A DNA stretch of 64,000 nucleotides, taken from positions 87,874-151,873 of the forward strand of contig QJZC01000011.1 of assembly GCA_003247575.1 (NCBI GenBank), written 5' to 3'. The DNA comes from Pseudomonadota bacterium (lineage in GTDB: Bacteria > Myxococcota_A > UBA9160 > SZUA-336). Below are positions 52,713 through 56,736 of the stretch, piece by piece. Within the stretch, counting starts at the first letter, position 1. Each line of letters begins with the position of its first letter. A program made the position numbers and the translations under genes. Under the pieces are notes generated by a model, which searched no databases, had not been told where the DNA came from, and saw only the letters and a program-made list of their open reading frames with translations.

Positions 52713-54062
52713 TCAGGGAGCGGACGGCTTCGCGCGGGAACCCGTGCGACGAAACGAGATCTGATGCTGCCGGTAGAACGCGCGCGCTTCCTCATGACCT
52801 TGCATGGCGGCTCGGGTCAGCCAGAGCCGACTCTCCCGGGGATCGGGCTGCACTCCAGTTCCCGAGGTATAGAGTTTTCCGAGCCAGAATTGAGCGTCGG
52901 GCTCCCCTTCGATCGCCGCCTGCCGGTAGAGCGCGACGGCGCGCGCGAGATCGCGCTCGGTCCCCACTCCCGCTTCGTAGAGCCGCCCGAGCCAGTAGCG
53001 TGCGTGTGCGTGACCGTGCTGCACCGCTTGTTCGAGCCACTTGTGAGCGTCTGCCGCAGCTTCGTCCGCGACCGGCGTGCGCAGGCCGTCGATGAGCAGA
53101 TAACCGATGCGCGCTTCGGCCTGCGCGAGGCCGCCGGTCGCGGCGGTGCGGTAGAGCTCCATCGCTCGCGCTCGGTCGGCGGGAACTCCAAGGCCTGCAT
53201 CGTAGAGCTGAGCCGTGCTGTACGAGGCACGCACCAGACCGCTGGCTCGGGCCCGCTCGAACCAGCGAAGTGCAGCTGTGTAGTCCTGCTCGACGCCCCA
53301 GCCTTCCACGTGGAGTCGGCCGAGCAGCTCCTGAGACCGTGGGTCTCCGTTCGAGGCGAGCTTCTGCACGACCGTCGCTCCGGCCGCGTACTCCCCGTTC
53401 CAGATCGCGAGCTGTGCCCTTCGAAAGGCTGGGGATTCACCCTTGGACGGCTCGCGCAGCTTCAGCTCGAGCTGCCCGATCCGCCTCACCCAGTGCGTGC
53501 GCTCCTCCTCGTCGAGCTCTCTGCCCCTGCGTGCGTACGTGATCGTGTGCGTCCCGGTCTCGCCTGCGATCAGCCGCATCAGGCTGTGCTGAGCGGGTTG
53601 TCCCACGCAGCCTGTGTGCCACCATTCGTAAAGCAGGTCGCCGGGGCGGCTCGGCAGGTCGCGGCTCTGCAAAGTTGGGCACTGCGCCCGCATCGAGTCG
53701 AGAAGCGCCTGCTTCGCGTTGGTCAGATCGAAGCGGCTGCGGCCGAAGGTGACGTTCCAGGCGAGCAGCTGCGTCCAGTTCGAGAGGTCTTCGTTCGGTG
53801 GGACGAACTCCTTGCGCGCATAGGACGGACTCACTCCTCGGAACGCGACGTGCCAGTCTGCAGCCGGCAGATCGAACTCTATCGACTCCGGCGGATCTTC
53901 GTACTCTGCTCCCGTCATCGCCTCGCAAGCGAGCGCGCGCGACGGTGCCCCAGCCAGCACCAAGGCCGCAAGCAACACTCTGCAGAGTCGCCCGGACCGA
54001 AACGGATCCTCCGACCTGGCGCGATGTGCTCGGTCCTTGGCCAATTTCAGCATGTGGTTCAC
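52713..54062 (-). CDS. Sel1-repeat (SLR/TPR-like) lipoprotein
   Basis: Signal/lipobox LLAALVLAGAPSRALAC. C-terminal half has at least 5 Sel1 repeats: LGRLHVEGWGVEQDYTAALRWFERAR; AQLYDAGLGVPADRARAMELYRTAA; YWLGRLYEAGVGTERDLARAVALYRQAA; FWLGKLYTSGTGVQPDPRESRLWLTRAA. Confidence 0.8.
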   Translation of the reverse strand: MNHMLKLAKDRAHRARSEDPFRSGRLCRVLLAALVLAGAPSRALACEAMTGAEYEDPPESIEFDLPAADWHVAFRGVSPSYARKEFVPPNEDLSNWTQLLAWNVTFGRSRFDLTNAKQALLDSMRAQCPTLQSRDLPSRPGDLLYEWWHTGCVGQPAQHSLMRLIAGETGTHTITYARRGRELDEEERTHWVRRIGQLELKLREPSKGESPAFRRAQLAIWNGEYAAGATVVQKLASNGDPRSQELLGRLHVEGWGVEQDYTAALRWFERARASGLVRASYSTAQLYDAGLGVPADRARAMELYRTAATGGLAQAEARIGYLLIDGLRTPVADEAAADAHKWLEQAVQHGHAHARYWLGRLYEAGVGTERDLARAVALYRQAAIEGEPDAQFWLGKLYTSGTGVQPDPRESRLWLTRAAMQGHEEARAFYRQHQISFRRTGSRAKPSAP

Positions 54063-54262
54063 CGCGCCCTCACCTCATTTCCATTTCGGGAGTCGTTGCC
54101 AGCTCGGGTGTCGTCGCCGCCTCGAGAGATCCGACTGCGGAGTCCGGATCCCCAGAATGCCACGCTTCCAGGCGTGTTCCCAGCGCCGTGCTGCCCCTGC
54201 AGGCGTTCAGTGTGTCTTGGAGCTGTGCACTCTCGCCTCGCGGCGCGGGCTTGTCGTCCTTA

Positions 54263-54278
54263 AATGATAATTGCTAAC
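54263..54278. promoter_or_regulatory. Fur-box-like sequence upstream of the Met-rich beta-helix gene
   Basis: AATGATAATTGCTAAC sits in a local AT-rich patch. There are 12/19 matches to GATAATGATAATCATTATC, including a perfect AATGATAAT core, ~150 nt upstream of ATG 54429. Confidence 0.3.
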
Positions 54279-54428
54279 CAATGAGTTTCGGCTGCGATCT
54301 TCAGGTGCTAAGCCGATGTCCGCCAAATAACCGCATGGCGATCCGCCGCAGGCATATGCAATTCGGCTCGTTGCGACTAGACTCTCGGTGCTCGCCGCCG
54401 TATGTGGCGGCGTGGATAGGAGAAGCAA

Positions 54429-55526
54429 ATGAAACGACAAGTAGAAATGCTCCGGACGGCAACGGCTGCCGCTGCGCTACTTCTGGCTCCGGCGCTCGCA
54501 TCCGCGAACCATCCGGTCTTGGTCGAGGGTGAGCTCGATTTCGATGGCGACGGGGTCGTCGGTCTAACCGAGGATGACGACGGGGATGCGGTCTTCGGCA
54601 GCATCAACCGCGCGCTTGGCGCAGCTCCCGCGATCGGCCAGAACGGTACGGTCGTCATCGTCACCTCCGGGCGCTTCCCAGAGGTGGTCACAATCACAGG
54701 CCAGGTCACACTCGAGGCCGCACCCGGCGTAGACGCACAGATCGACGCGTTCCTCGTCCCGGCCGATGCGCGCCTGAACGAGTTTCCGACTGCTCAGGCA
54801 GATCCCTTCGCCCTGCAGGCGCGTCCCGGAATCATCATCAACGCGCCACCCAGCCGCCACGTAATTATTCGGAACGTGGGGATCGTGAACTGGACCGATG
54901 GGATCATCATCCAGGGTCAATCGAACGTGTTGCTCGAGAACGTTCGCTCCGAGCACAACATCAGCAACGGGATCAACATCCAAGACCAGGCGGTCGTTAC
55001 GATCAAGAACTCCCAGGTGACCGCGAACGGGTTCCGCCTGAATCCGCGTACGGGTGATTTCCCGGGGGTTGTAGCGCCGACGCCGGGGCTGGGCATCAGT
55101 CTGGGTGCGCAGACGGTGACCGCGATCCGCGACTCCACCATCACCGGCAACTTCCTAGCAGGAATCGCTGCCGCTGCGGGTGCGCGCCTCTCGCTGAGCG
55201 ATTCCCTCGTGTTCGGGAACAACCGTGTTGCTCAGCTCGGTGTGCCGACTCCTCCGCCTCCGATGATGGACGACATGATGATGATGCCCGACGACGGCGG
55301 CATGATGATGATGGACGACGGCGGTGCCATGATGGACGACGGCGGTGCCATGATGGACGACGGCGGTGCCATGATGGACGACGGCGGTGCCATGATGGAT
55401 GACGGCGGTGCCATGATGGACGATGCCCCGGCGACGGACGACGGAGACGGTACCGTGTCGCTGACCGCGGATGACAGTCCAGGTGCTCGGTTGCGGGCGA
55501 TCCTGAGTCGCTTGTTCCAGGACTGA
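54429..55526 (+). CDS. Secreted right-handed beta-helix (PbH1/NosD-like) protein with C-terminal Met/Asp-rich repeat region
   Basis: Signal peptide ...LLLAPALASA. Beta-helix turns: VIIRNVGIVNWTDGIIIQGQSNVLLENVRSEHNISNGINIQDQAVVTIKNSQVTANG. C-terminus: PPPPMMDDMMMMPDDGGMMMMDDGGAMM(DDGGAMM)x4. Confidence 0.8.
   Translation: MKRQVEMLRTATAAAALLLAPALASANHPVLVEGELDFDGDGVVGLTEDDDGDAVFGSINRALGAAPAIGQNGTVVIVTSGRFPEVVTITGQVTLEAAPGVDAQIDAFLVPADARLNEFPTAQADPFALQARPGIIINAPPSRHVIIRNVGIVNWTDGIIIQGQSNVLLENVRSEHNISNGINIQDQAVVTIKNSQVTANGFRLNPRTGDFPGVVAPTPGLGISLGAQTVTAIRDSTITGNFLAGIAAAAGARLSLSDSLVFGNNRVAQLGVPTPPPPMMDDMMMMPDDGGMMMMDDGGAMMDDGGAMMDDGGAMMDDGGAMMDDGGAMMDDAPATDDGDGTVSLTADDSPGARLRAILSRLFQD
55314..55418 (+). 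repeat. Tandem 21-nt coding repeat, 5 copies (GACGACGGCGGTGCCATGATG = DDGGAMM)
   Basis: Five head-to-tail copies at 55314, 55335, 55356, 55377 and 55398. The only difference is one synonymous C>T in copy 5. A degenerate copy encoding PDDGGMMMM precedes them. Confidence 0.95.
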
Positions 55527-55574
55527 CCGACGCCTTATAGGCTTGTGTCCCGCGCACCGCACGGTGCGCGATGC

Positions 55575-55605
55575 GCAGTCCAAGCACGCCCCGTTCGCAC
55601 TGCGA
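55575..55605 (+). terminator. Hairpin after the Met-rich gene (probable terminator)
   Basis: CACGCCCCG...CGGGGCGTG, a 9-bp GC stem with further partial inner pairing, followed by ttgctttgcg. Confidence 0.5.
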
Positions 55606-55685
55606 GCGGGGCGTGTTGCTTTGCGTGTGTGCAGGAGCCCGTCGTAGTCGCGAGGGCTCGGTGGGTTCTTGGAGGGAGCTTCAGT

Positions 55686-56381
55686 TCAGTCCAGCTCTGG
55701 GGCCGGCAAGTTTGGTGAGTATGCCGTGTCGTTGGGCCCAGAGGAACGATTGCCCGTCAGCAGTTCAGCCAGGCTGTCCTGGGTCGCCAGGTCGAGCGAG
55801 TCGAATCGCACGGCGTAGGAGCCAGCCGCGGTCCGCCGAACCACTGTTGCCGGTAGATCGAAGCCGGCGAGCTTTCCCTTGACGACGAGCGTCAAGATCA
55901 GCGATGCCCCGATCTCGGTTCGTACGCGCGTGTCCGAGAGCTGGGCCCCCGTCATCGAGATATCGCGAATGATTCCGCTGTCGCAGAGGTTTGCCGACTC
56001 GACGGCGACCGGGATCACCGACGGCACGCGCGGAGAGACCACCTCGACTCCATGGCTTGCGATCTCACGTCGCTCGAGCTGGCGCACGAAGCGAACGTAG
56101 TCTGCTGGTGGAGCGAGCAGATCGAGCTTGAAGCCGTCCACGGTATCCGAACGTCGGCCACGCCAGCGCACTTTCCCGTCAATGGCGATCGTCGTGGCAT
56201 TGGCTTCGAGTCTGACGCGGACGGAGTCTCCGAGAGGCGGGAGCTGACCCGTGCGTACGAATGCCCCCGTTTCCGACACATTGGTGAGCCAGCCCGTGCC
56301 TCGCACGCTCGCCGCGTGAAACGTCACAGGCTTTAGCTCGCCTTGGAGCCGGGCGGATTTTGCATCGAAGGCGACGGCCAT
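55686..56381 (-). CDS. Tandem PilZ-domain protein
   Basis: Two (D/N)xSxxG motifs: LTNVSETGAFV and IRDISMTGAQL. Beta-barrel-like context. An RxxxR motif is not evident after ATG 56381. The region 56382-56597 of the track ORF has low GC3 and looks non-coding. Confidence 0.7.
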   Translation of the reverse strand: MAVAFDAKSARLQGELKPVTFHAASVRGTGWLTNVSETGAFVRTGQLPPLGDSVRVRLEANATTIAIDGKVRWRGRRSDTVDGFKLDLLAPPADYVRFVRQLERREIASHGVEVVSPRVPSVIPVAVESANLCDSGIIRDISMTGAQLSDTRVRTEIGASLILTLVVKGKLAGFDLPATVVRRTAAGSYAVRFDSLDLATQDSLAELLTGNRSSGPNDTAYSPNLPAPELD

Positions 56382-56736
56382 CGTACGGCGCTTCGGTGCA
56401 GTCTGCCTGATTCTTGAGCTCCTATCAGAAGCTGGTGGAAACGAGCCCAGATCGGACAGGACTGGCCCGCAAAGATTTCCATACATCTGTTTGTGTAGCG
56501 TGGAAGGGGCAAGTTTACGCTCGCTGTAGCAAGTTGAGGTGAAAAGCGAATTCCTGGTGCTCTGGATGCGACTACACTGTCGTTCCGTTATGTGCAACGG
56601 AGCGGGACTTACGCTGCATCGACACGCTTCGCCGTGTGCGAATAGACTAGAGGTACGTCTAGACGGTATTTCAACTCTCTATGAGACGAACCCTCACACT
56701 GTGAAGTGTTCGCATGGCGGGAGGCAGAGGGATCGA

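Follow-up and report, generated by a model that had tools for sequence, protein, structure and literature searches.

A secreted beta-helix protein with a methionine- and aspartate-rich tandem-repeat tail, a candidate Cu(I)-capturing component of the bacterial envelope

The Cu5 substrate site of the oxidase CueO is formed by Met355, Met441, Asp439, and Asp360, and the methionine (Met)-rich domain of this enzyme recruits Cu+ through multiple methionines (PMC11494321). In PcoB, copper efflux depends on a disordered region containing histidine (His) and Met; variation in the sequence or length of this region is tolerated provided that its ligands remain (PMC12509749). MrpX of Azospira suillum, a periplasmic Met-rich peptide, serves as a sacrificial hypochlorite sink together with an MsrP-type reductase (PMC4436054). 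The subject of this analysis is a gene at positions 54429–55526 of a 64,000-nucleotide (nt) stretch of contig QJZC01000011.1, assembly GCA_003247575.1 (the window), whose product, P0001, ends in a tail rich in Met and aspartate (Asp) with the heptad DDGGAMM repeated five times in tandem. Some CopB proteins contain tandemly repeated Met-rich motifs. Like the CueO Met-rich domain, the P0001 tail is periplasmic, flexible, and dense in Met, and the Met and Asp residues of DDGGAMM correspond to the Cu5 ligand set (two Met and two Asp). However, the CueO segment is an internal insert above the oxidase active site, whereas that of P0001 is a C-terminal tail of perfect tandem repeats attached to a beta-helix that lacks both a cupredoxin domain and a catalytic copper center. 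The N-terminal regions of PcoB and CopB and the Met motifs of the Ctr1 ectodomain are, like the P0001 tail, disordered terminal extensions of envelope proteins. These regions combine His with Met, His being essential in PcoB, whereas the tails of the P0001 clade contain 0.0% His; their carriers are beta-barrels or transporters, whereas that of P0001 is a soluble beta-helix. An extracytoplasmic location is shared with the CueO, PcoB, CopB, and Ctr1 segments, given the Sec signal and A-S-A cleavage site of P0001. The gene and its parts are as follows, in window positions.

54429..55526, + strand: gene for the exported beta-helix protein with the Met/Asp-rich tail, 365 amino acids, P0001 (open reading frame list, translation, Pfam, more than 150 homologues)
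54429..54506, + strand: Sec signal peptide, residues 1–26, ending in the signal peptidase I (SPase I) site A-S-A (read from the sequence; homologues)
54507..54581, + strand: family signature, Asn27-His28-Pro29-VLVEGE, then D37-F-D-G-D-G...E48-D-x-D51 (DxDGDG, calcium-loop-like; alignment A1)
54516..55238, + strand: right-handed parallel beta-helix core, residues 30–270 (AlphaFold2 strand ladder, Foldseek)
55263..55424, + strand: Met/Asp-rich, His-free segment, residues 279–332, with 20 Met, 16 Asp, and 12 Gly (composition, AlphaFold2)
55314..55418, + strand: five in-frame 21-nt units, each encoding DDGGAMM (Tandem Repeats Finder, unit-by-unit listing, 51-nt unitigs)
55425..55478, + strand: acidic spacer APATDDGDGTVSLTADDS, residues 333–350 (sequence; low predicted local distance difference test score, pLDDT)
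55479..55517, + strand: C-terminal amphipathic helix, residues 351–363, PGARLRAILSRLF (AlphaFold2, pLDDT ~82)

The frame at 54429–55526 (+) is the sole long protein-like frame at its location, and a ribosome-binding site, GGAGAAG, lies 5 nt 5' of its ATG. In its sequence, the N terminus, MKRQVEMLRTATAAAALLLAPALASA followed by NHP, has the classical form of a Sec/SPase I signal. Residues 141–267 match Pfam Beta_helix (PF13229) at 40.9 bits (cut-off 25.9), and an AlphaFold2 model built with 120 homologues shows a confident beta-helix with a beta-strand ladder over residues 30–270 (pLDDT mostly >90); by both profile and fold, P0001 belongs to the right-handed parallel beta-helix superfamily. A preliminary description of this DNA had called the product a secreted beta-helix protein and proposed structure prediction as a check; the signal, profile, and model bear out that description. 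Foldseek against the PDB returned for the core only generic right-handed beta-helices (Pel9A, pectin methylesterase, AlgE4, AlgG), at E ~1e-3, template-modelling (TM) scores of ~0.3, and identities of 10–14%. The best hit of a PDB sequence profile search with P0001 had E = 0.005, and an NCBIfam search of P0001 gave no match. Given how weak and generic the fold and PDB-profile matches are, the modeled core represents a separate and as yet unstudied branch within the superfamily. From its conserved sequence motifs, the core can be assigned to an uncharacterised beta-helix family, defined in this analysis and called NHP.

Comparison with NosD had also been suggested, and NosD (PF05048) is indeed a periplasmic right-handed beta-helix of similar size, to which ~40% of the family has a weak precomputed match. 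The likeness proved generic: identity with NosD was rejected because the PF05048 match, at 16.8 bits, fell short of the cut-off of 23.6 and NosD structures were absent from the Foldseek and PDB-profile matches. No nos genes were found among the annotated neighbours in the window or at loci L001, L098, L099, and L007.

Beyond the core, the protein reads PTPPPP-MMDDMMMMPDDGGMMMM-(DDGGAMM)x5-DDAPATDDGDG. Residues 279–332 are 37% Met and 30% Asp; with Pro278 (55 residues in all), the segment has 20 Met, 16 Asp, 12 Gly, 0 His, and 0 Cys. With seven Met in 12 residues, the tail is denser in Met than any stretch elsewhere in the 41,244 stop-to-stop frames that the 5.8-Mb genome contains. The same scan of Met density found no other Met-rich copper protein in the genome; the next densest frame (C66:65723-67066, − strand) encodes a secreted protein that is not related to P0001 and contains a (PM)7 linker. 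AlphaFold2 predicts residues 280–345 to be disordered (pLDDT 45–55). A calcium-binding RTX beta-roll was considered and rejected, as the nonapeptide GGxGxDxUx is not matched and the DDGGAMM period is seven residues (21 nt) in a segment predicted to be disordered.

Four of the five array units are the same at every position, and the last carries a synonymous GAC>GAT substitution; Tandem Repeats Finder reports a period of 21, 5.5 copies, and 97% matches over 55308–55423. The tail sequence and the five units with one synonymous difference are thus exactly as first described, and the recent expansion that had been proposed is upheld by the near-identity of these in-frame units. Public reads cover the locus as short Logan unitigs at 2–4x that break inside the array. 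Two independent studies (runs X1 and X3) each contain a 51-nt unitig internal to the array, and 51 nt equals 21+30, as expected from a perfect 21-nt repeat at k=31. These cycle unitigs therefore establish that the perfect array is real, with at least ~2.5 units; the count of five rests on the assembly.

Tails were scored as Met-rich when they contained at least four Met in 12 residues, and the score was mapped on a maximum-likelihood tree of the cores. Met-rich tails occur in 11 rows, all within the 37-row clade of the window protein (support 100/98), and in 0 of 82 other rows; the clade tree requires at least six gains or losses of the trait. The repeat units differ between proteins: DDGGAMM x5 in P0001, MMMM/MDD blocks in P0002–P0004, NGGAM in P0021 and P0029, APGAM x ~20 in P0122, and PM/PAPM in P0008, P0009, P0023, and P0121, while the paralogue in the same genome ends in PMMMNGGM. 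Such tails grow and shrink via in-frame slippage of short repeats, their sequence being replaced from lineage to lineage while Met-richness is retained, and the near-perfect DDGGAMM array is the youngest of the Met-tail expansions in the clade. Met makes up 9.9% of clade tails (9.1% without P0001), as compared to 0.5% of family tails outside the clade and ~1% of cores. Since Met has a single, AT-rich codon, such enrichment at ~65% G+C would not be expected from slippage bias alone. Met-rich, His-free tails have been rebuilt repeatedly from different repeat units, in DNA whose high G+C content works against ATG, which points to Met content, rather than any one sequence, as the trait under selection.

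The reading favoured here, tentatively and with a probability of about 0.42, is that the disordered Met/Asp tail captures Cu(I) in the cell envelope. P0001 is an exported three-part envelope protein, consisting of an NHP beta-helix, a strongly acidic, His-free tail of ~55 residues (one-third Met), and a C-terminal amphipathic helix, and works with a cognate Sel1-repeat protein encoded alongside. The tail may present a multivalent, low-affinity array of thioether and carboxylate ligands that traps soft cations in the periplasm, chiefly Cu(I) and possibly Ag(I), and then buffers the bound metal or passes it on to a partner. By analogy, this tail would resemble the CueO Met-rich domain, the disordered PcoB and CopB regions, and Ctr1 in recruiting copper, and the match of its Met and Asp chemistry to the CueO Cu5 ligand set is offered in support.

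Gene neighbourhoods of relatives also bear on this reading. At L001, the closest relative (77% identity), a Cus-like heavy-metal resistance-nodulation-division (RND) system lies 1.1 kb away and convergent with the gene, with an HMBD/CusB/CzcB adaptor, an ACR_tran pump, and an OEP component. A periplasmic Cu,Zn-superoxide dismutase gene (SodC) adjoins the beta-helix/Sel1 module in two subclades (L099/L100 and L107), in differing gene orders:

L099 4919-5491: Cu,Zn-superoxide dismutase gene
L100 271-843: Cu,Zn-superoxide dismutase gene
L107 ~1479-2030: Cu,Zn-superoxide dismutase gene

Distant, tail-less members occur in or near DUF4331-TPR-[gene]-HupE_UreJ_2-(NicO)-TonB-receptor clusters at ~10 GTDB loci spread over several phyla; in these DUF4331/HupE clusters, some intergenic gaps are just 74–210 nt. 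On ~8 marine metagenome contigs, DUF4331 lies 2.2–2.5 kb upstream of the family gene; the metagenome scan was productive with a clade-alignment query, a single-protein query being over-specific (0 matches). The metal theme of these neighbourhoods is recurrent and not universal, many loci having unrelated neighbours, and the type of neighbour follows the branch: Ni/Co-type transporters accompany distant members, and Cu-related genes accompany the Met-tailed clade.

Several observations weigh against capture of Cu(I). No copper gene adjoins P0001 in the window, and the gene links at other loci are ones of proximity, heterogeneous, and missing at many loci. The Cus-like operon of L001 is convergent with the family gene and not co-transcribed with it; adjacency to SodC is compatible equally well with a role in oxidative stress; and the uptake clusters of distant relatives, which have no Met tails, suggest Ni/Co-type transporters, not copper. 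Within the tail, the vicinal MM pairs of the five units stand five residues apart, and the classical MxM/MxxM type of spacing is found in the proximal part only (MxxM and MMMM being confined to residues 279–295). The tail has no His, though many bacterial periplasmic copper motifs do. In addition, the gene was absent from 40 of 40 sampled genomes of the window's family and class, leaving no physiology of relatives to draw on. The metal-capturing role put forward in the preliminary description thus survives in part: Cu(I) capture remains the best single reading, given the clade-wide Met content and the Cus-like, SodC, and HupE-NicO neighbours of relatives, while the argument from the position of the gene in the window does not stand.

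That argument had drawn on a TonB receptor and di-haem module 1.2 kb downstream. These genes are cut off from P0001 by an opposite-strand PilZ gene, and the adjacency recurs in no other clade locus; a functional link to the module was rejected on the latter ground. The genes flanking P0001 are listed below with the homologues of its upstream neighbour.

52713..54062, − strand: Sel1-repeat partner, 449 amino acids, exported, divergently transcribed (Pfam Sel1, alignment A2, AlphaFold2, Foldseek)
55686..56597, − strand: gene with two PilZ domains, convergent (Pfam PilZ)
L007 10313-11737: Sel1 homologue
L001 6012-7331: Sel1 homologue
L099 7015-8190: Sel1 homologue

The Sel1 gene is the conserved neighbour of the beta-helix gene, being present at six of nine clade loci with usable flanks. 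The adjacent Sel1 proteins are 50% identical to that of the window at L001, 59% over a fragment at L098, 43% at L099/L100, 46% at L107, and 41% at L007. The source genome carries two family genes, and the second belongs to a further copy of the whole arrangement on contig C18:118600-121200 (L007 9124-11737), the first being on C24; the two copies are 54% identical in the beta-helix protein and 41% in the Sel1 protein. A paralogue of the double-PilZ gene (38% identical, BLASTP E = 4e-40) lies 2.7 kb from the copy on C18. The beta-helix and Sel1 genes constitute a conserved two-gene module. The mature Sel1 partner begins at a Cys (CEAM...), and it is probably a lipoprotein, although its lipobox is non-canonical. 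Its N-terminal alpha/beta domain (~190 amino acids) has conserved QC, EWWH[S/T]GC, and AQH motifs in alignment A2, which could form a disulfide or metal site. This domain is rare, a word search finding it in three database proteins, and is modeled by AlphaFold2 with moderate confidence (pLDDT ~75–88); Sel1 repeats dominate the Foldseek matches of the partner, AlgK among them. The C-terminal helix of P0001 has the pattern L..L..LF.N/D, which is kept in the four closest proteins (C termini of P0002–P0004 compared). Docking of this helix into the Sel1 partner is a weakened proposal, as P0017-type proteins without the helix still keep the partner.

The alternative that survives best, though unlikely in our estimation, is that the tail is a plain spacer that merely tethers the beta-helix to the C-terminal helix or the partner, its Met not serving as ligands. 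In that case, the beta-helix would have a polysaccharide or some other polymer of the envelope as its target and the Sel1 protein would provide the scaffold, in the manner of AlgG and AlgK, and control by cyclic di-GMP through PilZ would be possible. The AlgG/AlgK alginate export pair likewise combines a periplasmic beta-helix with a Sel1/TPR-like protein encoded with it, and both are among the weak structural matches: by fold and by profile, the core comes closest to the polysaccharide-active beta-helices Pel9A, AlgE4, and AlgG, and the repeats of the partner match AlgK among other Sel1 proteins. PilZ genes near both module copies would fit as well, as would the family gene of L028, flanked by glycosyltransferase and acyltransferase genes (the layout of L032 is similar, judged by gene layout alone). 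Moreover, tail length and sequence vary freely, and many clade members have Pro/Ala/Thr-rich tails that resemble simple linkers. However, the fold matches are weak and generic, the DPHD motif of AlgG is missing from P0001, and no alginate or other exopolysaccharide operon surrounds the gene; polysaccharide synthesis or export genes flank neither the window gene nor L001, L098, or L099. An AlgG-type mannuronan C5-epimerase was rejected on these grounds (Foldseek E ~2e-3, TM 0.31, 12% identity, no alg genes nearby). A neutral high-G+C linker, furthermore, would be expected to be rich in Ala, Gly, Pro, or Arg, and not to reach ~10–37% Met repeatedly and independently.

A role as a sacrificial oxidant sink, in which the tail Met would scavenge hypochlorite, peroxide, or other oxidants as Met sulfoxide for regeneration by a periplasmic reductase, has a precedent in MrpX and is considered improbable. 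Like MrpX, the P0001 tail is exported, Met-rich, and probably unstructured; as a disordered, solvent-exposed, 37% Met segment with neither His nor Cys, its chemistry would be purely that of thioethers, and SodC, an oxidative-stress enzyme, adjoins the module in two subclades. However, MrpX is small, stands alone, and is co-transcribed with its reductase, whereas the P0001 tail is attached to a folded domain that is conserved and also occurs in tail-less form. No Met sulfoxide reductase gene was found at any locus with annotated neighbours, and the single Oxidored_molyb match of the genome (PF00174, MsrP-type) is on C16, a different contig from those of the two gene copies (C24 and C18). An oxidant sink also leaves the regular Asp pairs unexplained. 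Finally, an assembly artefact, with a true unit number lower or higher or a chimeric repeat, is very improbable despite the thin, broken read coverage of a 74%-complete metagenome-assembled genome (MAG) in 68 contigs, since the array (105–116 nt) is shorter than common Illumina reads and hence spannable, the intact frame runs into the conserved C-terminal helix, the cycle unitigs recur in two independent studies, related proteins have comparable repeat tails, and an artefact would alter the copy number at most, not the finding.

Members of the NHP family were defined by an SPase I site followed by N-H-[P/S/A]-VLVEGE, a DxDGDG...ED.D loop, and core NWT and PxPG motifs, all of which are present in P0001. 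More than 150 metagenome homologues (250–400 amino acids) can be aligned over the core only. A scan of 1.84 billion cluster representatives gave 79 matches at E <= 1e-10, a few being tail-only low-complexity matches; such matches (P0196, P0197, P0204, P0212, and others) were rejected as unrelated, uninformative low-complexity repeats, examples being eukaryote-like MMDDGWW and PDGG lipoprotein repeats. A GTDB survey with one genome per species found 93 relatives, and 80 loci, almost all from MAGs, were kept; the relatives belong to Acidobacteriota (Pyrinomonadaceae, Blastocatellia), Gammaproteobacteria, Chthoniobacterales, Actinomycetota, and Planctomycetota. In alignment A1 (120 sequences), the columns that are invariant or at least 90% conserved are N27, H28, P29, E33, G34, D37, D39, G40, D41, G42, E48, D49, D51, N154, W155, P217, P219, and G220, and the consensus of the family head is A, the cleavage point, and NHPVLVEGE-DFDGDG--G--ED-D. 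An [A/V/S]-x-A SPase site stands immediately before N-H-[P/S/A] in 115 of 115 scorable homologues, from which the mature family protein is predicted to begin invariably with Asn-His. Cu(II) or Ni(II) can be chelated by a free N-terminal amine when the second residue is His. The mature Asn-His-Pro/Ser/Ala terminus and the DxDGDG motif could be a candidate amino-terminal Xaa-His metal site and a calcium loop, respectively. The literature search found no paper on the NHP family, on DUF4331, or on HupE with TonB-dependent, TPR, or nickel.

A wider proposal, which we regard as quite improbable in its entirety, would make the NHP family an unrecognised class of periplasmic metal relay. The invariant free Asn-His-(Pro) N terminus would be a Cu(II)/Ni(II) Xaa-His site, and TPR or Sel1 partner proteins would act alongside the NHP protein. 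The relay would serve TonB-receptor/HupE/NicO uptake in some phyla and Cu,Zn-superoxide dismutase metallation or Cus-type efflux in others, and the clade of the window would have gained a thioether-only, tandem-repeat “fishing line” for Cu(I) that evolves by slippage.

With respect to regulation, one element was noted in the divergent promoter region:

54263..54271, no strand assigned: Fur-like half-site AATGATAAT, core of a 12/19 Fur-box-like site (sequence scan)

A Fur-box-like site upstream had been part of the initial description, and the site does exist: AATGATAAT is unique within the window, where 0.03 occurrences are expected by chance. It is missing, however, upstream of the L001 orthologue and of the in-genome paralogue (L007), and regulation by Fur was rejected for this lack of conservation. 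Scans of 53900–55800 gave no sigma-70-like promoter, intrinsic terminator, or Rfam element. Downstream of the stop codon, at 55550–55615, lies a G+C-rich hairpin, CGCGCACCG-CAC-GGTGCGCG, and a second one, CGCCCCG...CGGGGCG, followed by TGTTGCTTTG; a simple terminator scan called neither.

Further arrangements were observed around family genes. Tandem family genes occur in several MAGs, mostly of Acidobacteriota: three each in L064 and L069, and two each in L017, L031, L038, L041, L054, L057, and L059. An HlyD-type adaptor gene lies 68–107 nt downstream of the family genes in L038, L041, and L054, while L041 and L016 have DUF4394 genes upstream. At L098 (2060-5221), a large OmpR-type/AAA_16/TPR regulator gene directly follows the Met-tailed orthologue, and a hybrid histidine kinase gene occupies the matching position at L104. 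The cluster of TPR, NicO-like, DUF4331, beta-helix, HupE_UreJ_2, and TonB-receptor genes is seen at L004 (499-10890) and at L027, L039, L020, L025, L026, L002, L015, and L021; this DUF4331/HupE/NicO cluster, apparently undescribed, recurs in MAGs of Acidobacteriota, Gammaproteobacteria, and Chthoniobacterales.

A Met-rich, copper-recruiting tail is a known type of device; what is new here is a His-free, perfectly repeated Met/Asp heptad, its beta-helix scaffold, and an undescribed family with a two-gene module. Were the tail a redox sink or a spacer, it would be a modest curiosity. Disordered, Met-rich segments are increasingly recognised in copper handling, the known ones being carried by oxidases, barrels, or transporters and mostly containing His. 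The independent rebuilding of tails from different Met repeats amounts to a natural experiment, in which composition rather than sequence is what is needed. The neighbours of the module and family (SodC, a Cus-like pump, and HupE, NicO, and TonB receptors) suggest unexplored periplasmic metal traffic in uncultured bacteria of soils, sediments, and vents.

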